A stretch of DNA of 32,000 nucleotides. It comes from an uncultured Rhodospirillales bacterium. GTDB lineage: Bacteria > Pseudomonadota > Alphaproteobacteria > Acetobacterales > Acetobacteraceae. The stretch covers positions 1 to 32,000 of the forward strand of contig CAIYSR010000117.1 in NCBI GenBank assembly GCA_903928895.1, given 5' to 3'. Below, in pieces: positions 2,166-31,960 of this stretch (the first letter of the stretch is position 1; each line of letters opens with the position of its first letter). The notes under the pieces were generated by a model, which was not told the origin of the DNA, searched no databases, and worked only from the letters and a program-made list of their open reading frames with translations. Made by a program: the position numbers and the translations under genes.

Positions 2166-2717
2166 CTATTTGCTGCGGGCAACGGCGGCGACGCAGCGTT
2201 CGAAAACCGACAGGTCGCGCCAGCGGTCAACTTCTCCGGTGAAAATCGCGCCGCCGGCGGCGAGCATGGCCCCGTCGATCATCAGGTTGTCGGTCAAACC
2301 GAAATGCTCCAGCAGCATGCCATCGCGGTCGCGCCACTGGTCCACCCCGGAAGGCTCCGCGCCGAACGCGGCGCCGCTGCGGGTGAAGAAGTCAGCGGCA
2401 ACATTGCTCCAACCCCAGACCGGCCGCCCGAGGGCGCGCATGTAGCCGATCTCGAAAATCGTCCCAGCGTCGGCGCTTGGTCCGCGAAATGGGGTGAGGT
2501 TGGCGATCAGTACGTCACAGGCGCGGATATGTGCTTCATTGCAGAGAGCGATGAAGCGAGGAAGCGGCAGGGCCCGCCACGCGTCGGGCACGGCGTCGGG
2601 CGTATCTAGTGGGGAGACGCCGACCAGGCCGTGGCGGCTACAGACGGATTTGAGCGCGGCGGCACGCGCCAAAGGGTCCGGCAGGAAGACGTCGGGCCCC
2701 GCAAGATAGACGCGCAT
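2166..2717 (-). CDS. nucleoside 2-deoxyribosyltransferase family protein
   Basis: The ORF 2166..2822 is trimmed to the internal ATG at 2717 (MRVYLAGPDVF...). Motifs: LANLTPFRGPSADAGTIFEIGYMRALGRPV. The longer N-terminus would overlap the kinase gene. Confidence 0.8.
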   Translation of the reverse strand: MRVYLAGPDVFLPDPLARAAALKSVCSRHGLVGVSPLDTPDAVPDAWRALPLPRFIALCNEAHIRACDVLIANLTPFRGPSADAGTIFEIGYMRALGRPVWGWSNVAADFFTRSGAAFGAEPSGVDQWRDRDGMLLEHFGLTDNLMIDGAMLAAGGAIFTGEVDRWRDLSVFERCVAAVARSK

Positions 2718-2721
2718 AGAC

Positions 2722-19013: not shown

Positions 19014-19506
19014 CGGAGGGGCTCCGGGAAGGCGGGAAGAAAGGGCTTCCTTTTTGGAAAAAAGGTAACTGCCCAGCTAGGTGCTGCCTCGGCAATTGAC
19101 GGACCACGGGCAGGCGTAAGTCAAGGTGTGTGGCAGCGCGCGCACCTCCTGGCGCGTCGGATATCCCGGCCGATGACACCTTCTATCAGGCGATCTGTCA
19201 GGCGATTTTGCGCGCCGCCGCCGGCCAACCCGGCACGCGGTAGCGACCTCCCGACGTGTTGGACGGGTCAACGATTCGGACGGTTGGGATCACGACGCGA
19301 CTGTGGCCGACGGTCTCCTGTTTCACACCGGCCTACCCGCGTTGCAGCAGGCCGATGTCCAAGTCCGCCGTCGCGGCCGCGTGCCGCGCCGGGTCGGTCG
19401 CAACCGCCCGCTCGTCCGAGCACACGCCAGTCGGACGTGCCGCGCTTCCTGCTGTGGAAAAAGCCCGAAAGGTTCTGTCCTTCCTCCGAAAATGGATCGG
19501 CACGCC

Positions 19507-21372
19507 CTATTCGCCGGAGAGTTCCCGCCGCCGCCTTTCCAGTTCCTCGCTGTAGCGGCGCAGCGCGTACTGCTCGGTGAGGATGCCAATCACGCGGCGG
19601 CTTTCGCGGCTGTCCACGACCGCCAGCGCGTCGGCTTCCGCGGTCTCGAACAGTTCCACCGCGTCCTTGATCGTCATCTGCGGCACCAGCATGTCGGCCG
19701 GATTGTGCAGCAGCGTGACCAGCGACGTCGCCCGGGTTTCGGCCGCATGCGCCTCCGGCACCTGGATGATCCCGGCATAACACCCGGCCTCGTCCACCGC
19801 GACCACCCGGTTGGTCGCCCCCAGCGCGATATCGCGCCGGAACGCCGCCACCGTGATGTCGGACCGCACCGTGCGTATCTCGCGCCGCATCATCCGCGCC
19901 ACCGTCAGGTTGCGCATCCAGCCGATATCGACCGCGCTGCGGATCGCCTCGCCGCGCAGATGGAACCGCCATGTGGCGAAGGAGTAGCCGAACGTCCGCC
20001 GCACCGTCACCGCCGAAATCACCGAAGCCGCGATCACCGCCACCGTCAGTGGAAAACTGCCGGTCGATTCGAGCGCCAGGAACGTCATCGTCAGCGGCCC
20101 GCCGACGATCGCCACCGCCAGCGCGCTCATGCCCACCAGGGCACACACCACCGCCGGGATCGCCTGCGTCGCCGCCACGGCGGCGAAGGCCGACGCGAAC
20201 AGCTTGCCCATCAGCGCGCCCAGGAACAGCGAGGCGAAGAACAGCCCGCCGCGGAACCCGGAGCCCAGCGACACCGCCGAGGCCACCGATTTCAGCACGA
20301 CCAGCAGCAGCAACTGGTTCATCCCGTAGGGCGCATCGAGCCCGACATGCAGCGCCGCATGCCCGGACGACAGCACCTGCGGCGAAATCAGTGCCAGCAG
20401 CGCCACGATCAGCCCGCCGATCACCGGCCGCGCCCAGACCGGCATCCGGCTGCGGCGGAACAGCGTCTCGGTCAGCGTCACCCCGCGCATGATCAGGATG
20501 CCCGTCAGCGCGCACAGCACGCCCAGCACCAGGATCGGCAGATAGCTCACCGGCTCGATCGCCGAGGGCACCCGCAAATTATAGACGAACTCCCCCGGCA
20601 TCAGCAGTCGCGCCACCGACACCGCGCAGATCGCCGCCATGCCGACCGGCGCAAGATAGGCCACCGCATAGGTACCGATCACCAGCTCGAACGCATAGAA
20701 CGCGCCGCACAACGGCGCATTGAATGCCGCCGCAATCGCCCCGGCCGCGCCGCATCCCACCAGCAGCCGCAAATCGTTGCGCCTGAGCCGGAACATCCGC
20801 CCGAGCCGGCTCGCCAGCGCCGAACCGATCTGGGTATAGCCCGCCTCCAGCCCGACCGAGGCGCCCAACCCATTGGACAGCATCGTCTGCCCCACCACGA
20901 TGAGGCTGTCGTTGAGCGACATCCGCCCACCATAGAGCGCATTGGCCTCGATCGGATCGACCGCCCGGCGCGGCCACCAGCGTGCCACCGCCACCGTGAA
21001 CAGCCCGACCGCGAGCCCGCCCAGGGTCAGCGCCAACAGGGTGTTCAGCGGCGGCACCTCGACCTGGTCGCTCAGCCGCTGGGCCGGTCCGAGCCGGTAG
21101 ATCAGCCGATGCATCCATTGCGTGATCTCGCTCATCGCCGTCACACATAGCCCGGCCGTGATCCCCACCACCGCGGCCAGCGCCACCAGCCAGAGCTCGT
21201 CGGTGCGCACCAGCGCCCGCAGCGTTTGCGGCACATGCAGCACCATCTCGCCGAACGCCCGGCGCGTGCGCCCCTCCCGCCGATGGCTCTCGCGGTGATG
21301 GGCACGGCTCCCCGTGCCGGCCTTGTCGCCGGCTTGGGTCGCGGGGAAGCCGAAGAGCGAGAAACTGCCCAT
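19507..21372 (-). CDS. ClC-family chloride channel / H+-Cl- exchanger with C-terminal CBS pair
   Basis: 621 aa. Motifs: GLGASVGLEAGYTQIG, GAAGAIAAAFNAPLCGAFYAFE, GSGFRGGLFFASLFLGA. The C-terminal CBS-like region reads VVAVDEAG...VIGILTE. ATG 21372 is used; Met43 is an alternative start. Confidence 0.9.
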   Translation of the reverse strand: MGSFSLFGFPATQAGDKAGTGSRAHHRESHRREGRTRRAFGEMVLHVPQTLRALVRTDELWLVALAAVVGITAGLCVTAMSEITQWMHRLIYRLGPAQRLSDQVEVPPLNTLLALTLGGLAVGLFTVAVARWWPRRAVDPIEANALYGGRMSLNDSLIVVGQTMLSNGLGASVGLEAGYTQIGSALASRLGRMFRLRRNDLRLLVGCGAAGAIAAAFNAPLCGAFYAFELVIGTYAVAYLAPVGMAAICAVSVARLLMPGEFVYNLRVPSAIEPVSYLPILVLGVLCALTGILIMRGVTLTETLFRRSRMPVWARPVIGGLIVALLALISPQVLSSGHAALHVGLDAPYGMNQLLLLVVLKSVASAVSLGSGFRGGLFFASLFLGALMGKLFASAFAAVAATQAIPAVVCALVGMSALAVAIVGGPLTMTFLALESTGSFPLTVAVIAASVISAVTVRRTFGYSFATWRFHLRGEAIRSAVDIGWMRNLTVARMMRREIRTVRSDITVAAFRRDIALGATNRVVAVDEAGCYAGIIQVPEAHAAETRATSLVTLLHNPADMLVPQMTIKDAVELFETAEADALAVVDSRESRRVIGILTEQYALRRYSEELERRRRELSGE

Positions 21373-21543
21373 TTCGCCCGATGAAAAGACGCGTTGCGAA
21401 TACGCGTTCGACGGCGCCGTCGAAAAACGGCACCGCCCAGCTTCGACCAGAATGCCGCGGCAACATTAAGGCAAGCTTGACGCGCCGCTCCCTTGTGGGC
21501 TCACGCGCCGCGCCCGGTCAACCGCCGCATGCGAGCCATGCGC

Positions 21544-23004
21544 TCAAACTTCGAAAATTTTCCCCGGGTTCATCAGGTTCTGCGGATCGAGCGCCCGCTT
21601 GATCGCCCGCATCGTCGCCATCTTCACCGGATCGGCGTAATGCGCGAGTTCGCCGACCTTCTCGCTGCCGATGCCATGCTCGGCCGATATCGAACCGCCG
21701 TAGTCGCGCAGCAGATCATTCACCGCCCGCGTCACCGCCGGCTTGTACTGCCGCCACTGCTCCGCCGACATCCCGATCGGCGCCTTGAAATTGAAGTGCA
21801 GATTGCCATCGCCCATATGCCCCATCGGCCCCGGGCGCACATCCGCCAGCACCGCCCGCACCGCCCTGGAGGCATCCTCGATGAAGGCCGGAATCCGCGA
21901 CGACGCGACCGAGATATCGTAGCTCGCCCCCGGCCCGTCGTGCCGCCCCGCCTCGGCATGGCTCTCCCGGATGTGCCACATCGCCTTGGCCTGGCCCTCG
22001 CTCTGCGCGATCACCGCATCCAGCACCAGCCCGCGCTCCATCGCAGCGCCAAGGAATTCCTCCATCCGCCCCGCCATCACCCCCGCCTTGGGCAGCGCCG
22101 AGGACCATTCCATCAGCAAAAAATAAGGCGACTCCCCCGCCGGCAGCGGGTCCACACAGCCCGGCACATGGCGGAACACCCCGTCCAGATTGGTCCGGTT
22201 CATCAACTCGCACGACGTCACCGAATTCTCGCTCGCCGTATGCGCCTCCGACAGCAGCTCCACCGCCGCCTGCGGATCGCGAATGCAAATCCACGCCGTC
22301 GCCACATCCTTCGGCTTCGGCCACACCTTGATCACCGCCTTGGTGATGATCCCCAGCGTCCCCTCCGCGCCAATGAACAAATGCTTCAGATCATACCCGG
22401 TGTTGTCCTTCTTCAGCGCCTTCAGCCCGTCCCACACCTCGCCCGACGGCAGCACCACCTCCAGCCCCAGCACGAACCCGCGCGTGTTGCCGTAATGCAG
22501 CACCTGCGCGCCCCCCGCATTGGTCGAAAGATTCCCCCCGATCGTGCACGAGCCCTGCGCCCCCAGGCTCAACGGCAACAGCCGATCATGGTGCGCCGCC
22601 AGCTCCTGCAACGTCTGCAACACGCAGCCGCTCTCCACCGTCATCGTATAACCGAGCGGATCGACCTCGATCACCCGGTTCATCCGCCCCATCGAGACCA
22701 CGATCCCGGCATGGTGCGCATACGGCGTCGCCCCCCCCATCAGCCCGGTGTTGCCCCCCTGCGGCACGATCGCCACCCCCGCCGCCGCGCACAACCGCAC
22801 CAGCCCCGCCACCTCCTCCGTCGAGCTCGGCCGCGCCACCGCCACCGCACTCCCGGTCAACTGCCCCCGCCAATCCGTCAGGAACGGCCGCATGTCCTCC
22901 ACCCCGGTCAACAACCCCTTCTCCCCCAGCAGCGCCCGCAAGGCGGCGATCAACTCGGGACCGGCCGGCGTGGTCGGAATCTGCGGCGTGGCGACGACGT
23001 TCAT
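21544..23004 (-). CDS. FAD-binding oxidoreductase (FAD-linked oxidase; GlcD / D-2-hydroxyacid dehydrogenase-like)
   Basis: The start is set at ATG 23004 (MNVVATPQ...). Motifs: VVPQGGNTGLMGGATP-like (IVPQGGNTGLMGGATP), TMTVESGCVL, KDNTGYDLKHLFIGAEGTLGIIT, ISAEHGIG. Confidence 0.9.
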   Translation of the reverse strand: MNVVATPQIPTTPAGPELIAALRALLGEKGLLTGVEDMRPFLTDWRGQLTGSAVAVARPSSTEEVAGLVRLCAAAGVAIVPQGGNTGLMGGATPYAHHAGIVVSMGRMNRVIEVDPLGYTMTVESGCVLQTLQELAAHHDRLLPLSLGAQGSCTIGGNLSTNAGGAQVLHYGNTRGFVLGLEVVLPSGEVWDGLKALKKDNTGYDLKHLFIGAEGTLGIITKAVIKVWPKPKDVATAWICIRDPQAAVELLSEAHTASENSVTSCELMNRTNLDGVFRHVPGCVDPLPAGESPYFLLMEWSSALPKAGVMAGRMEEFLGAAMERGLVLDAVIAQSEGQAKAMWHIRESHAEAGRHDGPGASYDISVASSRIPAFIEDASRAVRAVLADVRPGPMGHMGDGNLHFNFKAPIGMSAEQWRQYKPAVTRAVNDLLRDYGGSISAEHGIGSEKVGELAHYADPVKMATMRAIKRALDPQNLMNPGKIFEV

Positions 23005-23166
23005 GGGCTTCCTGCGCTGGTTCGTTTCCTTGCCTGCAATCCTGCCGTCACTTACCTGCGCTGTCACCCCTCTTCGCCTCTTCACGGCGGTTGCCGAACC
23101 CGTCATCCTGACAGAATATAGAATCCCGGCGTGACAACCGGGCCAACTCAGGGGATGAACGGTTCA

Positions 23167-24264
23167 ATGGCGCAGGTATCGATCCGCAAGGTCGTCAAGG
23201 AATACGAAGGCAACGTCCAGGCGGTGAAGGGCATCGACCTTGAAATCGCCGACCAGGAATTCGTCGTCCTCGTCGGCCCCTCCGGCTGCGGCAAATCCAC
23301 CACCCTGCGCATGATCGCCGGCCTCGAGGAAATCTCCGGCGGCGAAATCGCCATCGGCGGCAACGTCGTCAACGACGTCCCCCCCCGCGACCGCGACATC
23401 GCCATGGTCTTCCAGAACTACGCCCTCTACCCCCACATGTCCGTCTTCGACAACATGGCCTTCGGTCTCAAGCTGCGCAAATTCCCCAAGGACGAAATCA
23501 AGCGCCGTGTCGACGAAGCCGCCCGCATCCTCGACATCGCCATGCTCCTCGAACGCAAACCCAAAGCCCTCTCCGGCGGCCAGCGCCAGCGCGTCGCCAT
23601 GGGCCGCGCCATCGTGCGCAACCCCAAGGTCTTCCTCTTCGACGAACCCCTCTCCAACCTCGATGCCAAGCTCCGCGTGCAAATGCGCACCGAAATCAAG
23701 AAGGTCCACCAGACCGTCAAAACCACCACCGTCTACGTCACCCACGACCAGGTCGAAGCCATGACGCTGGCCGACCGCGTCGTCGTCATGAACCACGGCG
23801 TCATCGAACAGGTCGGCCCGCCGCAGGAACTCTACCACCACCCCGCCACCCGCTTCGTCGCCGGCTTCATCGGCTCCCCCGCCATGAACTTCATCACCGT
23901 CAAAATCGGCTCGGACAACGGCATCTACGTCGAACTCGCCGACGGCACCCGCCTCGCCGCCAACCCCGCCCGCGCCGAGCGCTACAAAGAGCACGTCGGC
24001 AAAACCATGACGCTGGGCATCCGCCCCGAACACCTCACCGAAACCAAACCCAACGAAAAACCCGGCACCGCCTACTTCGACTGCACCGTTGACGTCACCG
24101 AACCCATGGGCATGGAAACCATGGTCCACTTCTTCATCAAAGGCGAACCCGTCTGCGCCCGCGTCGACCCCCTCACCATCGCCAACCCCGGCCAAACCCT
24201 CCGCCTCGCCGCCGACATGTCCAACATGCACCTCATCGACAACGACACGAACAAGGTCGTCTGA
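23167..24264 (+). CDS. ABC transporter ATP-binding protein (MalK/UgpC-like sugar-import ATPase)
   Basis: ATG 23167 (MAQVSIRKV...). It has Walker A GPSGCGKST, a Q-loop, the signature LSGGQRQRVAMGRA, Walker B FLFDEPLSNLD, an H-loop VTHD and a C-terminal TOBE-like domain. No permease or binding-protein gene is adjacent. Confidence 0.92.
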   Translation: MAQVSIRKVVKEYEGNVQAVKGIDLEIADQEFVVLVGPSGCGKSTTLRMIAGLEEISGGEIAIGGNVVNDVPPRDRDIAMVFQNYALYPHMSVFDNMAFGLKLRKFPKDEIKRRVDEAARILDIAMLLERKPKALSGGQRQRVAMGRAIVRNPKVFLFDEPLSNLDAKLRVQMRTEIKKVHQTVKTTTVYVTHDQVEAMTLADRVVVMNHGVIEQVGPPQELYHHPATRFVAGFIGSPAMNFITVKIGSDNGIYVELADGTRLAANPARAERYKEHVGKTMTLGIRPEHLTETKPNEKPGTAYFDCTVDVTEPMGMETMVHFFIKGEPVCARVDPLTIANPGQTLRLAADMSNMHLIDNDTNKVV

Positions 24265-24273
24265 ACCACTTCC

Positions 24274-24311
24274 CCCTCTCCCCTCCGGGGAGAGGGCCGG
24301 GGTGAGGGGGG
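24274..24311 (+). repeat. REP-like GC hairpin overlapping a G-quadruplex-type motif
   Basis: CCCTCTCCCC-tcc-GGGGAGAGGG forms a perfect 10-bp stem (24274-24296). GGGGAGAGGGCCGGGGTGAGGGGGG (24287-24311) gives four G-runs with loops of 2-3 nt. It lies just after the ABC gene stop and may act as a terminator. Confidence 0.55.
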
Positions 24312-24475
24312 AACACCGCCCTCTCCACACCCCCTAAAGAACAACAAGCGGGCTCTGCCCAAAACCCGCTGGGGCCTCAGACGCGTAGCCCAGCGAAGCG
24401 GCGACGAAAGCGACAGCGGTGCCCTTGCACCGCGAAAGCGCTCCATCCACCCCATCCATAAGAGTCCCCCCCCCC

Positions 24476-25597
24476 ATGGCCGCCGACGACATCCTCATCC
24501 CCGCCACCACCCTCACCTCCTTCGTCGCCGCCATCTTCCGCGCCGCCGCCTGCTCCCCCGAAGAGGCTGGCCGCATCGCCCACCACCTCGTCTCCGCCAA
24601 CCTCACCGGCCACGACTCCCACGGCGTCATCCGAACCCCCCGCTACATCGACTACGTCACCACCGGCCTCGTCCACCGCGACGTCAAAATCGACATCACC
24701 GCCGAATCCCCCACCCACGCCGTCGTCGACGGCCACTACGGCTTCGGCCAAACCATCGGCCCCCAAGCCGTCGACCTCGGCATCGCCAAAGCCAAATCCG
24801 CCGGCATGGCCATCATCGCCCTCCGCAAATCCGGCCACATCGGCCGCATCGGTGACTGGGGCGAACGCGCCGCCGACGCCGGCCTGGTCTCCATCCACTT
24901 CGTCAACGTCGAAAACGGCGAACTCGTCGCCCCCTTCGGCGGCACCGACCGCCGCTTCTCCACCAACCCCTTCTGCATCTGCATCCCCGGCGCCCCCAGC
25001 GCCGCAGGCGCGTCTGAAACAGCGCGCGAACCCCACCTCCTCCTCGACTTCGCCACCTCCCTCGTCGCCGAAGGCAAAGTCCTCGTCGCCTCCCGCGGCG
25101 GCAAACCCCTCCCCGAAGGCGCCCTCATCACCGAATCCGGCACCCTCTCCACCAACCCCGAAACCCTCTACGGCCCCCTCACCGACACCAGCCCCCGCGA
25201 CCCCAAAAACGGCACCGGCGCCATCCGAGCCTTCGGCGACCACAAAGGCAGCGCGCTGGCCTTCATGTGCGACATCCTCGGCGGCATCCTCACCGGCGGC
25301 GGCCCCTCCGGCCCCGTCCCCGGCGGCAAACGCGGCCAAATCAGCAACGGCATGCTCTCCATCTACCTCGACCCCACCCACTTCGGCGCCCAGAACTTCG
25401 TCGCCCAGGCAAAGGACTTCGCCGACTACGTAAAATCCAGCCGCCCCGCCACCAACACCCCCGAAGTCCTCGCCCCCGGCGAACCCGAACACCGCACCCG
25501 CCAATCCCGCCTCCAAAACGGCATCCCCCTCCAACCCGACACCTGGACCAGCCTCCTCACCGTCGCCCAATCTCTCAACGTCCCCATCCCCAACTAG
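24476..25597 (+). CDS. Ldh_2 family (malate/L-lactate/ureidoglycolate-type) NAD(P)H-dependent dehydrogenase
   Basis: ATG 24476 (MAADDILIP...). Motifs: SANLTGHDSHGV, GHYGFGQ, LRKSGHIGR, FGG...RFSTNPF, AEGKV, FGDHKGSALA. The track start at 24419 adds an unlikely Pro-rich leader. Confidence 0.9.
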   Translation: MAADDILIPATTLTSFVAAIFRAAACSPEEAGRIAHHLVSANLTGHDSHGVIRTPRYIDYVTTGLVHRDVKIDITAESPTHAVVDGHYGFGQTIGPQAVDLGIAKAKSAGMAIIALRKSGHIGRIGDWGERAADAGLVSIHFVNVENGELVAPFGGTDRRFSTNPFCICIPGAPSAAGASETAREPHLLLDFATSLVAEGKVLVASRGGKPLPEGALITESGTLSTNPETLYGPLTDTSPRDPKNGTGAIRAFGDHKGSALAFMCDILGGILTGGGPSGPVPGGKRGQISNGMLSIYLDPTHFGAQNFVAQAKDFADYVKSSRPATNTPEVLAPGEPEHRTRQSRLQNGIPLQPDTWTSLLTVAQSLNVPIPN

Positions 25598-25863
25598 GGA
25601 AGCAAGAAAGGCTGGGCGCTGCCCAGACCCGCCAGGGGCCAAGCCCCTGGACCTTCCAACCACTCCATAAAATAGGATGGGTAAACAAAGCGCGACGAGG
25701 CAAATTCCGACGAATGGTGAATCATATCCCCCCATCTGAAGGACAAAATGTCGCTGATTTCTGCGCTATCCTTTGAGTTTTGGTAAGCGTCGACGTCGTC
25801 AGCCTTTCCCGAGTAGCCTGATCGTTCTAAGGTTGATCTCGCAACCAAACGGGGCCGATAGAA

Positions 25864-26703
25864 GTGGAACTCTACAAGTATGCTGGCCTTGATAGGTTTG
25901 ACATCCTCAGAACGAGCCTCATTAGATATTCACAACCAAGTGCATTCAATGATCCATTCGAAATGCCGGCATTTCTCGAAAAAATTATCACCGACGAAGA
26001 AATGGAAATAAAATTGGAAAAAGAATTTATTCCGGAATTACTTAATCAATATATTGACAATTTTTCTACAGAAGGAAAGTTAGTGGTTCCATTTTCATAT
26101 ATATTGGAAAGAAAAGACGAATTATTTTAGCAGGCTCGCCGTGGAATCCCAAAATTATTGCATGCATTTACCATTGAAATACGGAAGAGAATTCATGATC
26201 TGGATAACCTTGTTGGTATCTTATCGCTCACCGAAGTGCCCGACGATCTTTTGATGTGGGCTCACTACGGTGATCAGCATCGCGGGATCGTTCTGGAGAT
26301 TGACTCCGAGGATGCAACACTGAACGAGCGCCGGACGACCGACGACGACTTTCGCCACTTGCGCAAAGTTAACTACGCTGACGAAAGACCGGAACTTATT
26401 CTTTCCGAATTTTCTTTTGAAGACCTATTTTTGCTTAAAAGTAACCATTGGGGATATGAAAATGAATGGAGGATTATAAAGTCCCTAAGTGACGCCACGA
26501 AAACTATAAATGCAGAACCACATGACATTTACCTATTTAACCTGCCGTCTCGCGCCATCAAAAGACTAATACTCGGCGCTCGCGTTCCCGAACGAATTCG
26601 TCTCAACATTGAGAACGAATTGAGTTTAAATTCGCATCTATCTCATATAACCGTGCAACAGGCCCAACTCGAAGATCGCAAGTTCGCAATTAGGATTATC
26701 TAG
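25864..26703 (+). pseudogene. DUF2971 family gene interrupted by a single in-frame TAG (26128-26130)
   Basis: ORFs 25864..26130 and 26158..26703 are in the same frame (both coordinates are 1 mod 3). Fragment 1 has LYKY...SQPSAFNDPFE. Fragment 2 has LSLTE...LLMWAHYGDQHRGIVLEI and KSNHWGYENEWR. Together they form a canonical DUF2971 layout of about 279 aa. The segment is AT-rich. Confidence 0.75.
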
Positions 26704-26769
26704 GATGAATTTCTCTTCTGCCTTGCGAGACAAATAGGGAGAAAAATCCTATGCAAACATCAAGTGCCC

Positions 26770-27033
26770 CTACTCCCCCAACTCCTTCTCCACCGCCCGA
26801 ACGACCACCCCCTGCCACCCCGGCCCCAACGCCCGCAGCCGCGCCAGCGTTTCCACCGGAAATCGGATACTCACCAGCGTCTTCGGCGCCGCCACAGGCG
26901 GCCGCCCCCGCCGCACCACCGTCTCCCCCCGCCGCAGCGTCGCCGCCGCGAAGAAATCCTCCGTCAACTCCGGCGCATCATCCGCCGGGTCCAAAATGGG
27001 CGCGCCAGCGCCGCTCTTCCTTGTCATGGCCAT
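26770..27033 (-). CDS. brnA: BrnA-family antitoxin (RHH)
   Basis: 87 aa: PELTEDFFAAA...RRGRP...PKTLVSIRFPVETLARLRALGPGWQGVV. The second ATG at 27027 has better GAGG spacing. Confidence 0.85.
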   Translation of the reverse strand: MAMTRKSGAGAPILDPADDAPELTEDFFAAATLRRGETVVRRGRPPVAAPKTLVSIRFPVETLARLRALGPGWQGVVVRAVEKELGE

Positions 27034-27259
27034 ACCTCATCGAAATAACCCGCCGCACCTCGCCGCGCAGCGTCCACACCATCACCACCAGCCGCCCCGC
27101 CACATACCCCGCCGTGATGAACCGCGCCTCGCCATACGCGAACCGCTCATCCTCCAACGTGGCATGCAACCCGGCGAACACCGCCGCCGCATCCTCGAAA
27201 TCCAGCCCCCGCTCCGGCAGCGTCACCCCCCGCTTCGCCGGGTCATAGCTGATCTTCAC
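26978..27259 (-). CDS. brnT: BrnT-family toxin (DUF497 ribonuclease)
   Basis: 93 aa: ISYDPAKRGVTLPERGLDFEDAAAVFAG...EDERFAYGEARFIT.GYVAGRLVVMVWT.RGEVRRVISMR. Confidence 0.88.
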   Translation of the reverse strand: MKISYDPAKRGVTLPERGLDFEDAAAVFAGLHATLEDERFAYGEARFITAGYVAGRLVVMVWTLRGEVRRVISMRYGHDKEERRWRAHFGPGG

Positions 27260-27301
27260 GATTTATCGCAGCTACAATTAATCCCCACTGCAATCCCTTT
27301 C

Positions 27302-27637
27302 CTACCCCACCAACGCCCGCACCATCCCCCGAACCGCCCCCAACTCCCCCACACTCACCCGCCCCTTCTTCACCGCCCCCCGCGCCCGCCAATCCAAACT
27401 CTTCACCTGATCCGCCAACACCACGCTCGCCGGGTCCCCCGCCAGCCTCACCTCAAACGGATATCCCTTGATCCGCGTCGTCACCGGGCAGCACAGCATC
27501 AACCCCGCCCGTCCATTATACGAAGCCGGACTCAGCACCAGCGCCGGCCGATGCCCGGCCTGCTCATGCCCCGCCTGCGGATCGAACGTCAGCCAAACCA
27601 CATCTCCCGCATCCGGAACATACCCCCGCCCGCTCAC
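27302..27637 (-). CDS. mazF: MazF/PemK-family type II toxin (mRNA interferase)
   Basis: 111 aa: YVPDAGDVVWLTFDPQAGHEQAGHRPALVLSP..YN...LMLCCPVTT.IKGYPFEV...VVLADQVKSLDW. The GTG start forms a GTGA overlap with the antitoxin stop. Confidence 0.9.
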   Translation of the reverse strand: MSGRGYVPDAGDVVWLTFDPQAGHEQAGHRPALVLSPASYNGRAGLMLCCPVTTRIKGYPFEVRLAGDPASVVLADQVKSLDWRARGAVKKGRVSVGELGAVRGMVRALVG

Positions 27638-27876
27638 CAGGCCTCCCGCCCCACCGGCCCGCCGCTCGACACCTCGTCATGCCGGTTCTCGTCGCTGATC
27701 CCCGCCACCAGCGCCGCCAAATCATACCCGTCCTCCACGATCGGCTCCATCACCACCCGCCCCCCTTCCTCGCGAACCTCCACCGCCTGGTCCACGGAAA
27801 CCCGCGCCGCCGCCATCACCGACGCCGGAATCCGCACCGCCGCACTGTTCCCCCACTTCTTCACCACCACGCGCAT
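27634..27876 (-). CDS. mazE: MazE/AbrB (SpoVT) family antitoxin
   Basis: ATG 27876 is preceded by AGGAGG. MRVVVKKWGNSAAVRIPASVM is a swapped-hairpin AbrB-type N-terminus. The track ORF extension to 27987 is rejected. Confidence 0.88.
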   Translation of the reverse strand: MRVVVKKWGNSAAVRIPASVMAAARVSVDQAVEVREEGGRVVMEPIVEDGYDLAALVAGISDENRHDEVSSGGPVGREAW

Positions 27877-28037
27877 CACACACCTCCTGTCCACCCCTTC
27901 ATCCTCCACCCTTAACGCTGTCGTGTCAACAATGTAGATACACAGAGAACCCTCCTGCCTCCCCGAGTCGCACCCCTTGCCCTCCAAAGTTTCGTTCTGC
28001 TAAGGTTGCGAACCAAGATGTCCGGGGGGATCCAGCC

Positions 28038-29225
28038 ATGTTGCCGCGAAATATCCGCATCGCCGCCTTGTCCGTCGCCCTCCTCATCCCCGGCATCGCC
28101 GCCGCCGCCCCCACCGACCCCCCGGGCGCCCTCGCCACTCCCACCCCCGGCACCCCCGCCCCCGTGCCCCCATCCACCGTCCCCACGGTCGCCGCCAACG
28201 ATGGCCGCGCCGCATCCCTCGCCCCGCAAACCGATCCCCGCGTCACCTCAGTGCGTGACCGCCTGACCAACGTCACCGCCAACATCCGCGCCATCCGCAC
28301 CCAGTACGACGCCCTCCAGCGCGACGCCCAATGGACGCTCCGCGCCACCGTCGAACAGACCCAGACCGCCCAGCGCGGCCTGCGCGAATACCGCCGCCAG
28401 GCCCGCGACGCCGTCGTCGATACCGACAAGCTGATCGAAGATTCCAACCAGCTCCTCAAGACCCAGAAATCCGAGCTCGTCAGCCAGTTCTTCGCCTTCT
28501 ACCAAAGCAACGGCCTCCAGTTCCCGCCCATCAACACCAACCTCCAGGCCGAAAACGTCGAACCGCCCCCCATCGACCTCGACGAAGCCCTGACCCGCCG
28601 GGCCCGGGACGTCGAACGCATGAAGGACATCGAGGCCACCCTCGCCACCCCCCTGCGCGCGGGCGCGCCCGGCGTGCCCGGCGAAGACCGCAACCAGCTC
28701 CAGTTCGAGCTCCAGCAGCTCAAGCGCCAGGGCGCCCCCAACGAAACCAATCTCCGCCGCGGCTACACCGCCTACGAGTCCCTGCGCGGCTCCTACCAGC
28801 AGCTCGCCCGCCTCGTCGCCGACACCGCCCGCCTCCGCCTCGACGCCGACCGCCTCTCCAGCGAAATCGACGGCGCCATCTCCGATCTCTTCAGCCTCGC
28901 CACCCAGCAAAGCAGCTTCCGCCAGACCGTCACCGCCTATTTCGCCGCGGCCCTCACCGCCCTCATCGTCGGCTTCTTCATCGTCGTCGCCCTCGATTCC
29001 AAAGTCCGCGCCAACATCTTCGGCGGTCAGCTCGGCGTCGCCGGCGGCCAGGCCGGCATCCAGTTCGTCACCATCTTCGCCCTCGTCATCGCCATCATCC
29101 TCTTCGGCGTCATGGGCATCCTCGAAGGCAAGGAACTCTCAGCCCTGCTCGGCGGCCTCAGCGGCTACATCCTCGGCCGCGGCGTCGGCGGCAACCAGCC
29201 AGCCCAGCACCAACCGCCCCCCTAA
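28038..29225 (+). CDS. hypothetical secreted / membrane-anchored coiled-coil protein
   Basis: 395 aa. It has a signal-peptide-like N-terminus (MLPRNIRIAALSVALLIPGIAAAAP), a Pro/Thr-rich linker, a long Q/R/L/D/E-rich helical region, two C-terminal hydrophobic helices and a Gly-rich tail. Strong third-position C periodicity supports this frame. I recognise no domain. Confidence 0.7.
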   Translation: MLPRNIRIAALSVALLIPGIAAAAPTDPPGALATPTPGTPAPVPPSTVPTVAANDGRAASLAPQTDPRVTSVRDRLTNVTANIRAIRTQYDALQRDAQWTLRATVEQTQTAQRGLREYRRQARDAVVDTDKLIEDSNQLLKTQKSELVSQFFAFYQSNGLQFPPINTNLQAENVEPPPIDLDEALTRRARDVERMKDIEATLATPLRAGAPGVPGEDRNQLQFELQQLKRQGAPNETNLRRGYTAYESLRGSYQQLARLVADTARLRLDADRLSSEIDGAISDLFSLATQQSSFRQTVTAYFAAALTALIVGFFIVVALDSKVRANIFGGQLGVAGGQAGIQFVTIFALVIAIILFGVMGILEGKELSALLGGLSGYILGRGVGGNQPAQHQPPP

Positions 29226-29291
29226 GGCCGAGGACGCCCGCGCCGCGAAAAATCCTTGAACCGGGTTTCACCGCGTTTTAGGAATAAATTC

Positions 29292-29888
29292 ATGCGAACC
29301 CAGCCCCTTCCCTCCCCCATCCGCGCCAGCGCCCTCGGCATCGCCGCGCGCCTCACCGGGATTCTCACCGGCCTCGCCACCATTATCGCCTATGATTTCC
29401 TGCGCAATCCGCGCCGCGTCGGCCTCATCATCACCCTCTGGAGCCGCCTCCACCGCGCCGCCCGCCGCTTCGAGCGCCTCGCCGCCCGCCTCGCCGCCGG
29501 CAAGCCCGAGCCGAAGCCCCGCGCTCACCGGCCCCGCCCCAAACCCGCCGCCCCCAGCCCCCGCAGCATGCGCAATGCCCCGCTCCCGCGCGGCCACGGC
29601 TGGATCGTGGCCGAGCTGAAACACCGCGCCGCCCTCTACCGCCTCTACCTCGAAACCCTCCTCGCCGAACCCGACACCGCGGCCCTCCTGGCCGCCTCCC
29701 CCGCCGCCGCCCGCATCCTGCGCCCGTTCTGCCGCATGCTCGGCCTCCCCCCCATCCCCGAATCCCCGCCCGAACCCGTCAGCCAACCCAGCCAGCCCGC
29801 ACCGCGCCGGACGCCCCCGTCGGCGTCCCACCCCGCGCCCCGGCCAGCCCGCCGCCGCCCGCCCCGGCCCGCGAAAAAAACCGCCTGA
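29292..29888 (+). CDS. hypothetical membrane protein, basic and Pro-rich
   Basis: ATG 29292 has AGGA 8 nt upstream. There is one TM-like segment (LGIAARLTGILTGLATIIAY), a block GWIVAELKHRAALYRLYLETLL..P..AALLAASPAAARILRPFCRMLG, and a Pro/Arg-rich tail. No family is recognised. Confidence 0.55.
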   Translation: MRTQPLPSPIRASALGIAARLTGILTGLATIIAYDFLRNPRRVGLIITLWSRLHRAARRFERLAARLAAGKPEPKPRAHRPRPKPAAPSPRSMRNAPLPRGHGWIVAELKHRAALYRLYLETLLAEPDTAALLAASPAAARILRPFCRMLGLPPIPESPPEPVSQPSQPAPRRTPPSASHPAPRPARRRPPRPAKKTA

Positions 29889-29926
29889 CCCACGGCGCCG
29901 ACTTGCGTCTTAATTGTTCCGTTTAG

Positions 29927-31033
29927 TTAATTAAATCGCCCCGGATCGACCAGCCCCACCGCCCCCGCCAGATCCGCATCCACCTTCCCCTCCACCAGCC
30001 CCGCCACCAGCCGCCCCATCGCCGGCGATGTCTGGATGCCATACCCCCCCTGCCCCACACACCAGAAAAACCCGTCCGCCACCCGATCGAACCCCACCAC
30101 CAACCCCCGATCCGGCGAAAACGTCCTGAGCCCCGCCCAGCTCCGCTCAACCCGCCGCACGTCGATATCGAGTGCCCGCTGCATCGCATCGATCCCCACC
30201 GCCACGTCGTACTCGTCCGGCTGCACATCATGCGCATGGATCGGCGTCTCATCCGCCGGCGACACCATCAGCTTCGTCCGCATCTCCGGCCGGCAATACC
30301 ACGCCTCATCCATGTCGTTGATCATCGGCCAATCCGTCACCACCCAAGGCGCCGGGTCCACAATGCAAGCCGTCCGCCGCATCGCCACCAGCCCCAGCGC
30401 CCGCACCCCCGCCATGACCGCCACCTCATCCCCCCAAGCCCCCGCCGCATTGACCACGATCGGCGCCCGAAACACCGCCCCGCCCGTCACCTCGACCTCC
30501 CACGCCCCCCCCACCCGGACAATCCGCCCCGCCCGGCTCCGCAACGCCAACACCCCGCCCCGCCCACGGTGCAACCGCAGGAACCCCTGATGGATCGCCG
30601 CCACATCCAGATCCGCCGCCCCCGCCTCATAAGCCGCCGCCGTCACCACGTCCCGGATCGCTGGAACCATCCCCCGCGCCTCGGCAACCGTTATCTCCCG
30701 CACCCCGACGGCCCCTACCATCGAGTCGCGCAGCGCCCCCTCCTGCCCCGCCCTCGCCAGCACCAGCGACCCCCGAACCCCACACAACGGCACCTCCGAA
30801 AACCCCACCGGCGGCGAAACCAGAAATTCCCGCGACGCCCGCGTCAGAATCTGCGCATCCGGCGAGCCATAATTGGCCAACCACACCGCCGCCGACCGTC
30901 CCGTCGAATGATACCCCGCCGCCGCCTCCGCCTCGACCAGCGCCACGCGCCGGGAAGCCGACAACTGCGCCGCCGCGGTTGCCCCCACGATGCCGGCGCC
31001 GATTACGATCACGTCATACGAATGGATGTCCAT
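29927..31033 (-). CDS. FAD-dependent oxidoreductase (DAO / glycine-D-amino-acid oxidase family)
   Basis: 368 aa. It has an N-terminal Rossmann motif YDVIVIGAGIVGATAA and C-terminal GQGGYGIQTSPAMG. Confidence 0.9.
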   Translation of the reverse strand: MDIHSYDVIVIGAGIVGATAAAQLSASRRVALVEAEAAAGYHSTGRSAAVWLANYGSPDAQILTRASREFLVSPPVGFSEVPLCGVRGSLVLARAGQEGALRDSMVGAVGVREITVAEARGMVPAIRDVVTAAAYEAGAADLDVAAIHQGFLRLHRGRGGVLALRSRAGRIVRVGGAWEVEVTGGAVFRAPIVVNAAGAWGDEVAVMAGVRALGLVAMRRTACIVDPAPWVVTDWPMINDMDEAWYCRPEMRTKLMVSPADETPIHAHDVQPDEYDVAVGIDAMQRALDIDVRRVERSWAGLRTFSPDRGLVVGFDRVADGFFWCVGQGGYGIQTSPAMGRLVAGLVEGKVDADLAGAVGLVDPGRFN

Positions 31034-31072
31034 GCCACGAACATGCCCACCCGCGGCCGCCCCGGCAACCCG

Positions 31073-31456
31073 TCAATCCGCCAACGAAATCCCGCTCCGC
31101 ACCCGCACCAGCCCATTGACCAGCCCAACGATCTCCAAAGCCCCGAACGGCTTGCGCAGCAGTCGGGTCGCCCGATCCTCGGGCACTGGCTCCGGCATTT
31201 CCCAATCCATCAACCCGGTGACGAACACGATCGGTACCCCGCCCCACAGCCGCCGCAGCCATCGCCCGAATCCAACGCCCTGCATCATGCCGGGCAGCGA
31301 GATATCGATCACCGCCGCATCCACCCGCTCCGCCGCCGCATGCGCCTGCGCCGCCACGCCGCTGTCGGCCGCACTGACGTGGTAGCCCGCCCCGCGCAGG
31401 GCGCGGGCGACCACATCGCGAACCTGGAGATGGTCTTCGACCAGCAGGACCTTCAT
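31073..31456 (-). CDS. single-domain response regulator (CheY-like receiver)
   Basis: ATG 31456 (MKVLLVEDH...). Motifs: VIDISLPGM (phospho-acceptor Asp context), VFVTG, LRKPF. The track ORF extension to 31618 is rejected; ATG 31471 is an alternative. Confidence 0.85.
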   Translation of the reverse strand: MKVLLVEDHLQVRDVVARALRGAGYHVSAADSGVAAQAHAAAERVDAAVIDISLPGMMQGVGFGRWLRRLWGGVPIVFVTGLMDWEMPEPVPEDRATRLLRKPFGALEIVGLVNGLVRVRSGISLAD

Positions 31457-31622
31457 GCCGGGCGTCGGCATATGGCACAGCATGGGCGGGATACGATCAT
31501 GCATGGCCCGGCCATGACCGCGCACACCCATCTGGGCGGGCATACTCGAAACCATGAAACTCAGGCTCCCCAATGGACATTCGCCCAAGCTAGGCGCCTG
31601 CATCCGGCCGGGGATCATGATG

Positions 31623-31771: not shown

Positions 31772-31960
31772 TCAGCGATAGATCACGCAGTTCTGCCGCC
31801 CCGCCATCACGCAGTCCTGGATGTGCGATACCCCCGACAGGATGTCCCCGAGCCGCCAGCCGATCACGATCAGCACGACGACCACCACCATTGCGATCAG
31901 CGCATTGCGCCGCGACGGAGGGTCATCATCCGGCTCTTGTATCGGCATCTCGATTGACAC
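31772..31960 (-). CDS. small single-TM hypothetical protein
   Basis: 62 aa with an acidic N-terminus, the TM segment LIAMVVVVVLIVIGW, and a C-terminal QDCVMAGRQNC motif with two Cys. The start is GTG 31960 or ATG 31948. The coding call is weak. Confidence 0.45.
   Translation of the reverse strand: MSIEMPIQEPDDDPPSRRNALIAMVVVVVLIVIGWRLGDILSGVSHIQDCVMAGRQNCVIYR

Follow-up and report, generated by a model that had tools for sequence, protein, structure and literature searches.

An orientation-independent strand-asymmetry patch of 12 kb in the chromosome of an uncultured Acetobacteraceae bacterium

What could deprive one DNA strand of guanine across a whole series of neighbouring genes, no matter on which strand these genes are encoded? 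This question is raised by a 32,000-nt stretch of DNA (hereafter the window; positions 1 to 32,000 of contig CAIYSR010000117.1, assembly GCA_903928895.1) from an uncultured Rhodospirillales bacterium of the family Acetobacteraceae. A preliminary description, based on G and C counts made by hand on single 60-nt lines, had reported an abrupt, orientation-independent switch to a C-rich top strand. These counts were reproduced (G/C of 29/16, 28/16, 8/33, 7/32 and 10/38), only line 17,001-17,060 differing with G19/C22 instead of 20/22, and the switch itself is real, as judged by windowed skew and by third codon positions, at which the sign is the same on both strands. Likewise, the gene labels purK, lpxB, rnj, ClC, FAD-oxidase and DAO were confirmed by Pfam.

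Composition and extent of the patch

Based on GC, third-position and fourfold-site skew, the patch extends from 19,300 to 31,355, its top strand being rich in C and A and its bottom strand in G and T regardless of the coding strand. Between 1 and 19 kb, the windowed top-strand GC skew averages about +0.04 (range -0.08 to +0.12). It starts to fall at 19.3-19.5 kb, ranges from -0.06 to -0.20 at 19.3-21.5 kb and, in 500-nt windows, from -0.17 to -0.48 at 21.5-31.2 kb (-0.30 to -0.48 at 22-31 kb), and is back to about -0.09 by 31.3-32.0 kb. The skew of -0.4 to -0.6 given previously holds for short lines or third codon positions, but not for 500-nt windows. Since 1-kb windows of unskewed related loci display a standard deviation of 0.059 (range -0.15 to +0.19, 347 windows), the patch represents an outlier of 5-8 standard deviations.

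Fourfold and twofold sites as well as intergenic DNA display the asymmetry. At silent sites, the top strand of this 12-kb stretch is nearly emptied of G in either gene orientation: at fourfold sites, 11 of 11 patch genes on both strands carry 68-94% C and 1-28% G on the top strand, with 82-94% C in the core genes, and the third-position skew has an identical sign in plus- and minus-strand genes. The previously described strand-wise shift in codon usage was verified for glycine, with GGG/GGC counts of 36/6 in the DAO gene, 0/42 in the Ldh2 gene and 8/35 in the flanking RNase J gene, while third-position G+C of the genome is held at about 90%. Moreover, 43 G-quadruplex (G4) motifs on the bottom strand face 2 on the top strand within 8.7 kb. 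The AT skew of the patch is orientation-independent, too (A > T on the top strand); this feature, an island of 40% GC and the position of the right edge inside a gene were absent from the preliminary description.

At fourfold sites, the top-strand ln(G/C) amounts to -1.83 in the patch (about -0.72 as skew) versus +0.35 in the left flank at 1-19 kb (about +0.17) and +0.42 in the right flank at 32-41 kb (about +0.21), the latter being read from a second strain of the same species (L001/L030). As both flanks share positive polarity while the patch has the opposite one, the patch is not a switch between two replichores but an island inside a single one, where the skew is inverted and roughly five times as strong.

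Its left edge (19,014-19,600, by third-position skew) is gradual. Here, the intergenic region between CoaX and ClC is unskewed, and a step in third-position skew, from about +0.15 to about -0.2/-0.3, is seen at the ClC 3' end. In contrast, the right edge (31,300-31,400, at about 31,355) is sharp and lies within the gene of a receiver-only response regulator (RR; 31,073-31,555, minus strand, Pfam), of which the 3' half is skewed and the 5' half unskewed. The leftward decay is broadly gradual; skew strength per gene is not monotonic from the right edge and peaks in mid-patch, at MazF-Ldh2. Farther right, a 58-aa membrane ORF (h58; 31,778-31,954, minus strand) is located at the divergent junction with an alpha/beta-hydrolase operon. 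It is mildly skewed in the window and strongly skewed in the related locus L004, whose patch edge coincides with the h58 start. No conserved origin, nick-site, promoter or hairpin feature was found at the edges. Likewise, the searches yielded no tRNA and no cluster of DnaA boxes, no oriented motif was enriched, and neither flanking repeats nor an integrase were found at the patch.

Gene content, related loci and direction of change

From the left, the patch starts with genes, all assigned by Pfam, for a ClC chloride channel with CBS domain (19,507-21,372, minus strand), with weak skew (fourfold top-strand C 0.68, G 0.28; third-position skew -0.26), a GlcD-like FAD-linked oxidase (21,544-23,106, minus strand; C 0.75, G 0.20; -0.45), a MalK/UgpC-type ABC ATPase (23,131-24,264, plus strand; C 0.86, G 0.09; -0.63) and an Ldh_2-family dehydrogenase (Ldh2; 24,476-25,597, plus strand), which marks the skew maximum (C 0.94, G 0.02; -0.90). 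The ABC ATPase gene uses GAA more than GAG and NAC/NAT codons at 47/1, and no skew is seen in its orthologues from L006, L005 and L027. The patch is then interrupted by about 1 kb of DNA with 40-42% GC and a GC skew of -0.02 (25,760-26,750), which carries fragments of a DUF2971 gene (25,864-26,130 and 26,158-26,703), is also present in other strains (L036) and entered the patch recently. It is followed by two toxin-antitoxin pairs on the minus strand. The first, BrnTA (26,770-27,259; BrnA 26,770-27,033, third-position skew -0.74; BrnT 26,978-27,259), is skewed and shares 92% nucleotide identity with L004 compared to 78-85% for neighbouring genes; segments of the patch such as this one do move between lineages. 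The second, MazEF (27,302-27,876; MazF 27,302-27,637, MazE 27,634-27,876), displays third positions of G 82, C 8, A 3 and T 19 on the coding (bottom) strand of MazF (top-strand skew -0.82), while its closest DNA relatives, from alphaproteobacterial plasmids, are unskewed with a GC3 of 0.55. Two hypothetical plus-strand genes come next, hyp395 (28,038-29,225; a coiled-coil/membrane protein of 395 aa; C 0.87, G 0.09; -0.65), which is missing from L004, and hyp210 (29,256-29,888; a Pro/Ala-rich protein of 210 aa, called 198 aa elsewhere), which is moderately skewed and variable in length. The DAO-family FAD oxidoreductase (29,927-31,033, minus strand, Pfam) is D-arginine-dehydrogenase-like (C 0.82, G 0.10; -0.64). 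Convergent genes lie 38 bp apart, with a lone terminator-like plus-strand match of 5 stem pairs between them.

Related loci were all reached via homologues of DAO, Ldh2 or the hydrolase. Similar patches exist in relatives at 85-92% and 64% DAO identity, while other relatives at 60-70% DAO identity have none. Two of the patch-bearing loci, L004 and L031, possess a mirror-image patch across the junction, the G-rich strands running 5'->3' away from the centre; in the window species, only a faint mirror patch is seen. L029 shows the same shape, with sharp edge and gradual decay, over 17 kb, its edge being inside a metY-like gene. Furthermore, the set ABC-Ldh2...DAO-RR is common to the unskewed Limobrevibacterium gyesilva and L005/L006 and represents the ancestral gene set of the chromosome.

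Protein composition has drifted along with the DNA. Gly, Val, Trp, Cys and Phe together make up 30.7% of DAO versus 22-24% in unskewed orthologues, whereas the plus-strand genes Ldh2 and ABC display the opposite shift, with Pro, Thr, His, Gln, Asn and Lys up and Gly and Val down, which matches the prediction of a DNA-level pressure. When changes at codon positions 1 and 2 were polarised with unskewed outgroups as reference, Ldh2 gave, on the top strand, 24 G->A, 8 G->C and 1 G->T with only 4 changes to G, and DAO, on the bottom strand, 9 C->T, 6 C->G and 3 C->A with 4 changes to C. L004 yielded 12 C->G, 9 C->T and 3 C->A, while controls were balanced. These sequence comparisons indicate that bottom-strand C has been lost to T and G, equivalent to a loss of top-strand G to A and C. 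By 5' neighbour, the rates are 0.18 for A, 0.15 for G, 0.10 for T and 0.09 for C. The skew is also long-lived, because DAO has remained skewed in both the window and L004 although its fourfold sites are nearly saturated with changes between the two (identity of 0.73; saturation expectation 0.68). Within the species, 8 SNPs occur in 11.9 kb, a density not visibly raised, and synonymous relaxation in DAO proceeds only about 1.6 times as fast as in the flanks. As both values are little raised, a fixation bias through biased repair or selection is possible.

Competing explanations

The positive-to-negative sign change at 19.3 kb suggests an ordinary replication terminus where forks meet, a reading that had been raised at first and then doubted for asymmetry and magnitude. 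It was rejected and its probability is practically nil: the weak positive polarity of the left flank returns at 32-41 kb, the skew is about five times as strong as in the flanks, and, consistent with the earlier search by eye, no dif site was found in 41 kb (best match with 7/28 mismatches). Just as negligible is an assembly chimera or sequencing artefact, also considered previously. While seven contigs from several assemblies end at 29.5-29.97 kb, L034 and L035 from other samples cover 18.0-29.9 kb and traverse the left edge at 99.96% identity, L001, L002, L003 and L030 cover 29.5-35+ kb including the right edge at 99.9-100% identity, gene order is identical in contigs of other samples (92 kb and 18 kb), and other species display the phenomenon as well; with at least seven independent assemblies traversing the boundaries, this candidate was likewise discarded. 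Acquisition or inversion of a segment from an extremely skewed replicon or replichore, e.g. a unidirectionally replicating plasmid, had been proposed as well and is highly improbable. It could account for the toxin-antitoxin modules and hypothetical genes, for the plasmid-borne MazEF relatives and for in-gene edges, as expected of recombination junctions. However, skew strength differs gene by gene, no plasmid match exists beyond MazEF (none for hyp395), repeats, integrase and tRNA are lacking at the flanks, and about 200 kb of relatives contain no donor with such skew. The skew arose in place, because the gene set of the core is shared with unskewed relatives, MazEF took on the local skew unlike its plasmid copies, and neither the 40%-GC insert nor the 5' half of the response-regulator gene carries it.

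Selection on the DNA itself, e.g. in favour of a strand rich in G-quadruplexes or C, or against a G-containing motif on one strand, would agree with the extreme one-strand G4 density and with the maintenance of skew across long divergence, but is very unlikely given that the skew disregards gene borders, stops mid-gene and changes protein composition, that no specific motif exceeds the composition-based expectation, and that the unskewed mid-patch island contradicts a need for insert-free DNA. Strand-biased heteroduplex repair, i.e. asymmetric gene conversion centred on a junction that recurrently breaks or acts as a recombination hotspot, has a small but real chance of being correct. C.C mismatches escape MutS/Hex repair; if the 3'-ended strand (top, left of the break) always invaded, C alleles would pass with these poorly recognised mismatches while G.G and G.T would be rejected. 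Polarity fits, since the sharp edge is where the C-rich strand has its 3' end and since L004 and L031 change sign at the centre, as do the little raised total synonymous rate and the exchange of BrnTA between lineages. On the other hand, frequent recombination of diverged alleles would be needed at one fixed site without any hotspot element found there, the A > T bias is not obviously explained, no Chi-like oriented motif is enriched, and a clear mirror patch is missing in the window species. A self-reinforcing transcription/R-loop (G-loop) domain without DNA synthesis is unlikely too, albeit worth serious consideration. Here, the h58-RR-DAO, MazEF and BrnTA operons would give rise to leftward transcripts that read through the region and, as G-rich RNA, hybridise stably with the C-rich template, and damage to the displaced G-rich strand would let the skew grow. 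Indeed, the G-rich strand encodes 8 of 12 patch genes (response regulator counted) including both toxin-antitoxin operons and bears nearly all G4 motifs, the L004 patch begins at h58 beside the divergent junction, mirror patches flank the divergent operon pair, and the spacer between the convergent genes measures only 38 bp, its lone terminator-like match having just 5 stem pairs. Yet the skew peaks in Ldh2, a plus-strand gene whose own transcription predicts the opposite bias, plus-strand genes are skewed as much as minus-strand ones, the L029/L007 patch starts in or after minus-strand genes and spans 6 kb of mainly antisense-oriented genes (5/6), and an R-loop-prone transcript of 12-17 kb is without known bacterial precedent.

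A probable local mutation pressure and its parallels

The evidence favours another alternative of the preliminary description, namely a locally hyper-asymmetric mutation regime. A close parallel in composition is vertebrate mtDNA, in which deamination of C and A on a persistently single-stranded strand is taken as the cause of asymmetry (PMC3269012). There, too, one strand (heavy) is rich in G+T and the other (light) in A+C, the magnitude at fourfold sites is comparable, and codon and amino-acid usage are dragged along on both strands; the composition type agrees with the ssDNA-deamination model of the heavy strand. In contrast to mtDNA, the patch is a 12-kb segment of a bacterial chromosome amid normal DNA, with third-position G+C near 0.9 and a visible shift from G to C instead of G to A. 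Bacterial replichore skew resembles the patch in G > C and T > A on one strand, independence of orientation and a maximum at silent sites, but is about five times weaker in log-odds and opposite in sign in the flanks, and the patch covers only 12 kb, bounded by neither origin nor terminus. Local skew in Alphaproteobacteria has been described as peaks around gene transfer agent (GTA) and core genes, where G-containing are preferred over C-containing synonymous codons (Koppenhofer et al. 2022, PMC9836097); these peaks, however, were defined at about +/-0.03 with mainly leading-strand genes, whereas the patch reaches 0.3-0.48 independent of orientation and contains no GTA genes.

R-loop/G-loop zones such as CpG-island promoters and immunoglobulin switch regions share the G-rich strand running 5'->3' from a divergent junction, dense G4 motifs and a potential for skew and hybrid stability to reinforce each other. 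Unlike these zones and R-loop-primed replication (ColE1, cSDR oriK), the patch spans 12-17 kb with genes in both orientations, and no report of such skew at E. coli oriK sites was found in the literature. Kataegis denotes strand-coordinated clusters of C->T and C->G changes on ssDNA at resected breaks or in break-induced replication. The patch resembles it in coordinated one-strand losses of C to T and G over kilobases and in the sign flips across the centre of L004 and L031, but lacks a TpC preference, was built up over evolutionary time and shows a polarity reverse to that of 3'-tail deamination after 5'->3' resection at a central break. A published precedent for such a chromosomal patch was not found.

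Under a local mutation pressure, bottom-strand cytosines would be lost to T and G and adenines would drift to G, leaving a G+T-rich bottom and a C+A-rich top strand; because third-position G+C is held at about 90%, fourfold G is replaced by C, while twofold sites change from G to A and from T to C. The bottom strand of the segment may recurrently become single-stranded, or may recurrently be made anew by leftward synthesis, which would begin close to the divergent promoter junction at 31.4-32.0 kb and move opposite to the main fork. The skew maximum in mid-patch requires extra assumptions of this model, e.g. younger genes or recombination at the periphery. Such synthesis could be transcript-primed or nick-primed strand displacement, as in ColE1 or on the mtDNA heavy strand, and lesions could be bypassed by the alphaproteobacterial ImuABC/DnaE2 pathway with resulting G:C->C:G changes; in Caulobacter, G:C->C:G transversions are reported to depend on ImuBC (PMC3901139). 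The probable, though by no means assured, explanation of this locus is hence a long-lived, locus-bound, strand-asymmetric mutation pressure that acts in place on ordinary chromosomal genes, most likely because the bottom strand is recurrently single-stranded or resynthesised.

Extent and strength of the strand asymmetry

Between positions 19300 and 31355, a stretch referred to here as the patch, the top strand is rich in C and A and the bottom strand in G and T, whichever strand is coding. The preliminary description had reported a strong, orientation-independent switch to a C-rich and G-poor top strand from G and C counts on single 60-nt lines; a recount reproduced these numbers almost exactly, and the switch itself was confirmed by windowed skew, third codon positions and fourfold degenerate sites. 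Mean top-strand GC skew amounts to +0.04 across 1-19 kb, turns negative at 19.3-19.5 kb, ranges from -0.17 to -0.48 across 21.5-31.2 kb (500-nt windows) and is near zero again by 31.4 kb. As one-kb windows from related loci without skew, about 200 kb in total, display a standard deviation of 0.059 and never fall below -0.15, the patch lies far beyond normal variation.

According to Pfam matches and the gene tables of other assemblies, the left 19 kb comprise ordinary genes such as purK, lpxB and those for a photolyase and a hybrid kinase, with RNase J (-) and CoaX (-) located just outside the patch. Within the patch follow a ClC channel (-), a FAD-linked oxidase (-), a MalK-type ABC transporter ATPase (ABC, 23131-24264, +) and a Ldh_2-type dehydrogenase (Ldh2, 24476-25597, +), then DUF2971 fragments in a low-GC island, BrnA/BrnT (-), MazF/MazE (-), two hypothetical genes (+), a DAO-family FAD oxidoreductase (DAO, 29927-31033, -) and a receiver-only response regulator (-). 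The low-GC island (25760-26750) lies mid-patch with 40-42% GC and no skew, is also present in other strains and contains a DUF2971 gene split into ORFs 25864-26130 and 26158-26703. Both promoter-like matches of a sigma-70 and terminator scan of 18.5-32 kb fall within this island, and the scan was uninformative. No informative Pfam or NCBIfam match was obtained for the hypothetical proteins hyp395, hyp210, h824, h551, h165 and h58, the latter a 58-aa membrane ORF at the junction with a hydrolase operon.

Third-position top-strand skew is negative in all patch genes on both strands, ranging from -0.26 (ClC) to -0.90 (Ldh2). Fourfold sites of the patch carry 68-94% C, 1-28% G and about 3% each of A and T on the top strand, as against 32-43% C and 47-57% G in the flanking RNase J and CoaX genes. 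At twofold sites, plus-strand patch genes prefer GAA, AAA, CAA and NAC (45 NAC versus 0 NAT in Ldh2) and minus-strand genes GAT, CAT and NAG, while the glycine codons GGG and GGC are used 36 and 6 times in DAO, 0 and 42 times in Ldh2, and 8 and 35 times in RNase J. Intergenic DNA within the patch is skewed as well (-0.23 to -0.35). In a fourfold-site model separating codon preference from a strand term, the latter expressed as top-strand ln(G/C), values of +0.35, -1.83 and +0.42 were obtained for the left flank, the patch and the right flank, respectively. Hence, the patch stands out from its flanks by a strand term of opposite sign and about five times their strength. A simple inversion was rejected on account of this magnitude, and selection on codon usage since plus- and minus-strand genes are biased oppositely on their coding strands.

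The right edge is sharp, with skews of -0.64 in DAO, -0.45 in the 3' half of the response-regulator gene and 0 at about 31,355, whereas skew on the left side declines stepwise through Ldh2, ABC, FAD-oxidase, ClC and CoaX. Maximum skew is reached mid-patch, from MazF to Ldh2, so that decay from the edge is not perfectly monotonic; this could reflect younger genes (hyp395 is absent from the related locus L004, and hyp210 is only 41% identical there) or recombination at the periphery.

Several further features were noted along the contig. A REP-like palindrome, CCCCTCTCCCCTCCGGGGAGAGGGCCGGGGTGAGGGG, between ABC and Ldh2 (24272-24310) is among the few G-rich spots of the patch top strand; a run of 10 C (24466-24475), differing by one base in strain L035, immediately precedes the start codon of the plus-strand gene Ldh2, whose ribosome-binding region contains hardly any G. 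Seven contigs from independent assemblies (L001, L002, L003, L030, L034, L035 and L036) all stop within the Pro/Ala-rich hyp210 (29500-29970), from which 133 bp (29715-29847) are missing in L002; the region is apparently variable in length and a cause of assembly breaks. Outside the patch, the sole Rfam match, an mmgR/suhB sRNA (RF00519; 16043-16125, -; 41.9 bits versus a gathering score of 41), is situated just downstream of RNase J. The hybrid histidine kinase (2722-4857, -) forms one ORF of 692-711 aa in the window and in one other sample, and is annotated as two separate genes (405 and 276 aa) in a 92-kb contig of another sample, which looks like a strain-level frameshift.

Terminus, assembly and import as explanations

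A change from positive to negative skew might mark a replication terminus, as had been considered in the preliminary description. This reading is contradicted by the flanks, which share the same weak positive polarity (+0.35 left, +0.42 right) instead of displaying opposite ones, and by the outcome of the search for a XerCD/dif site that this description had called for: no dif-like site was found near the switch, a dif core pattern with up to 3 mismatches giving no match and a 28-nt degenerate consensus matching at best with 7 mismatches over 41 kb. From the polarity shared by both flanks, the window is placed within a single replichore whose leading strand is the top strand, a relation of patch sign to fork direction established for the window species only. 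With regard to origin-like features, a negative-to-positive skew change across the hydrolase junction is seen in the related loci L004 and L031 and is faint in the window species, and short stretches of 36-41% GC occur outside the window at 32.8-32.95 kb and 37.65-37.85 kb; no DnaA-box cluster, CtrA site or rep gene was found at or around the patch. An assembly chimera, another of the alternatives in that description, can be dismissed since the boundaries are reproduced in independent assemblies. Contigs L034 and L035 cross the left boundary, and L001, L002, L003 and L030 the right one; L001 and L030, of the same species, are 99.87-100% identical to the window across the overlap, and the same gene order recurs in two longer contigs from other samples.

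The remaining replicon-level reading, a segment inherited from a strongly skewed replicon, was rejected based on the ancestral gene set of the patch, the unskewed plasmid relatives of MazEF and the lack of integration hallmarks. In the unskewed Limobrevibacterium gyesilva locus (L027), the order SBP-permease-permease-ABC-Ldh2 is followed about 9 kb further on by DAO and the response regulator in one chromosomal neighbourhood, and unskewed DAO and ABC orthologues are present in L005 and L006, the latter also having an unskewed Ldh2. No tRNA or tmRNA genes were found at or around the patch, and direct or inverted repeats able to flank a mobile element were limited to weak, composition-driven ones. 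In a plasmid database search, only MazEF was matched, hyp395 remaining without a match. MazEF is a mobile module whose nearest DNA relatives reside on Sphingobium and Acetobacter plasmids with a GC3 of 0.55 and essentially no skew, whereas third positions of the window MazF comprise 82 G, 8 C, 3 A and 19 T. The DUF2971 insert is a small acquired island, itself unskewed, as is the 5' portion of the response-regulator gene. Since MazEF is skewed while these two pieces are not, the locus converts whatever sits in it, with the youngest pieces still unconverted.

Directional change and persistence among relatives

This in-place conversion, together with the direction of the changes, supports a local hyper-asymmetric mutation regime, which the preliminary description had listed among its alternatives. 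Changes at codon positions 1 and 2 were polarised against unanimous outgroups. On the top strand of Ldh2, 24 G->A, 8 G->C and 1 G->T changes were counted, and only 4 changes led to G; on the bottom strand of DAO, 9 C->T, 6 C->G and 3 C->A changes compare with 4 to C. The DAO gene of L004 yielded 12 C->G, 9 C->T and 3 C->A changes, while the controls were balanced. Among 83 events, lost cytosines displayed no context preference (rates of 0.18, 0.15, 0.10 and 0.09 for A, G, T and C as 5' neighbour, respectively), which speaks against a TpC- or WRC-specific deaminase of the APOBEC, AID or DddA-like type. No oriented 6-8-mers were over-represented on the G-rich strand beyond composition expectation. 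For comparison, ImuB/ImuC (DnaE2) lesion bypass in Caulobacter yields G:C->C:G changes (PMC3901139). Variation within the species is sparse, with 8 SNPs in 11.9 kb of the patch (3 of them C<->G) as well as 7 in the right flank, and does not allow a spectrum to be polarised. All 7 SNPs right of the window, found over 5.2 kb between two strains (L001/L030), fall in 0.7 kb (comp 34448-35129) of an 824-aa hypothetical gene and may represent a small recombination tract.

The encoded proteins have drifted as well. Pro, Thr, His, Gln, Asn and Lys together account for 27.3% of plus-strand Ldh2 (21-24% in unskewed orthologues) and 28.9% of plus-strand ABC (24.6-26.3%), while Gly, Val, Trp, Cys and Phe drop to 22.5% in Ldh2 (27.5%) and are barely lower in ABC (22.8% versus 23.0-24.1%). 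Minus-strand DAO is shifted in the opposite direction, the latter five residues reaching 30.7% as against 22-24%. Judged from these compositions, the pressure at the DNA level is strong enough to alter proteins.

The same patch as in the window is present in L004 and L031, two Rhodospirillales MAG lineages with 85-92% identical DAO. Both also carry a mirror-image patch of opposite sign, again orientation-independent, on the far side of the divergent h58/hydrolase junction (L004 1-9100, L031 1-4110); in the window species (L030), this mirror patch is no more than faint. Fourfold identity of DAO between window and L004 is 0.73, with 0.68 expected at saturation, while flanking genes show 0.62-0.63 versus 0.43-0.47. 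As DAO fourfold sites are thus nearly saturated and yet skewed in both, the regime has outlived the split of the two lineages. BrnT/BrnA DNA (window 26768-27226, L004 11884-12342) is 92% identical, neighbouring genes reaching 78-85%; its fourfold sites are 95% identical and its amino acids only about 77-87%, which suggests, from these identities, a recent exchange between lineages or unusual selection.

A second, more distant clade, L007 and L029 (DAO 64% identical), has a patch that is weaker, extends over at least 17 kb and combines a sharp edge within a metY-like gene with gradual decay. In L029, this Cys_Met_Meta_PP gene (2538-3830) is called with only 250 aa and seemingly frameshifted, the skew starting at about 3,300. 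L025 and L026 possess a skewed Ldh2 at a rearranged locus, and L028 (70%), L005, L006, L027, L024 and L014-L019 are without patch. A metagenome scan with the junction hydrolase retrieved only relatives of at most 65% identity, all unskewed. Based on DAO and Ldh2 identity matrices, the skewed loci are not monophyletic. Because all loci were reached through homologues of patch genes, the link of the regime to this locus may be an ascertainment effect.

Proposed mechanism and implications

Each patch has its G-rich strand oriented 5' to 3' away from its sharp edge, as would be the case if leading-strand-like synthesis or transcription started at the edge, or if the G-rich strand were displaced from a nick; deamination of 3' tails at a central double-strand break was rejected, as it implies the reverse polarity. 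The G-rich strand is the non-template strand for 8 of the 12 patch genes and not for the four plus-strand genes, which include the most skewed one, so a transcription-linked or R-loop origin would call for dominant antisense read-through over these genes. In kind and magnitude, the asymmetry most closely resembles that of vertebrate mitochondrial DNA, where deamination of C and A on the displaced, single-stranded heavy strand leaves this strand G+T-rich and affects genes on both strands (PMC3269012). Like there, silent sites of the patch divide into a G+T-rich and an A+C-rich strand independent of gene orientation. On account of this analogy, recurrent single-strandedness or resynthesis of the bottom strand is favoured, which would start near 31.4-32.0 kb. 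Transcript- or nick-primed strand displacement, persistent R-loops and strand-biased heteroduplex repair could each underlie the pattern. It is conceivable, if somewhat doubtful, that some freshwater Acetobacteraceae chromosomes harbor fixed sites from which one strand is repeatedly exposed or resynthesised over 10-20 kb, through transcript- or nick-primed strand-displacement synthesis or a self-reinforcing R-loop domain, giving heritable asymmetry of mitochondrial grade.

Modest GC-skew peaks have been described around GTA and core genes of Alphaproteobacteria (PMC9836097). Unlike those peaks, which stem from G-rich codons on the coding strand, plus-strand patch genes are C-rich on their coding strand, and the magnitude is about ten-fold larger. 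Apart from this study, full-text searches retrieved general work on skew, mtDNA, R-loops and cSDR, in none of which an orientation-independent chromosomal island of such strength is described.

The causes of strand asymmetry have been debated for decades, with deamination of single-stranded DNA, polymerase errors, repair and selection all being invoked, and in most cases the asymmetry is small and, across whole replichores, hard to separate from gene orientation. The present locus is a natural experiment in this respect: a sharp-edged 12-kb island in normal DNA with genes on both strands, a dated series of inserts ranging from a fully converted plasmid toxin-antitoxin module over partly converted hypothetical genes to an unconverted island, and sister lineages with and without skew, which makes the cause directly testable. 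A regional bias this strong can cause amino-acid changes, lead phylogenies and detectors of horizontal gene transfer astray, break assemblies, and confuse skew-based origin and terminus prediction as well as misassembly checks. If recurrent exposure or resynthesis of one strand from fixed sites holds true, the patch would exemplify a type of regional mutation regime not described so far in bacterial genomes, rewriting codon and amino-acid usage locally.
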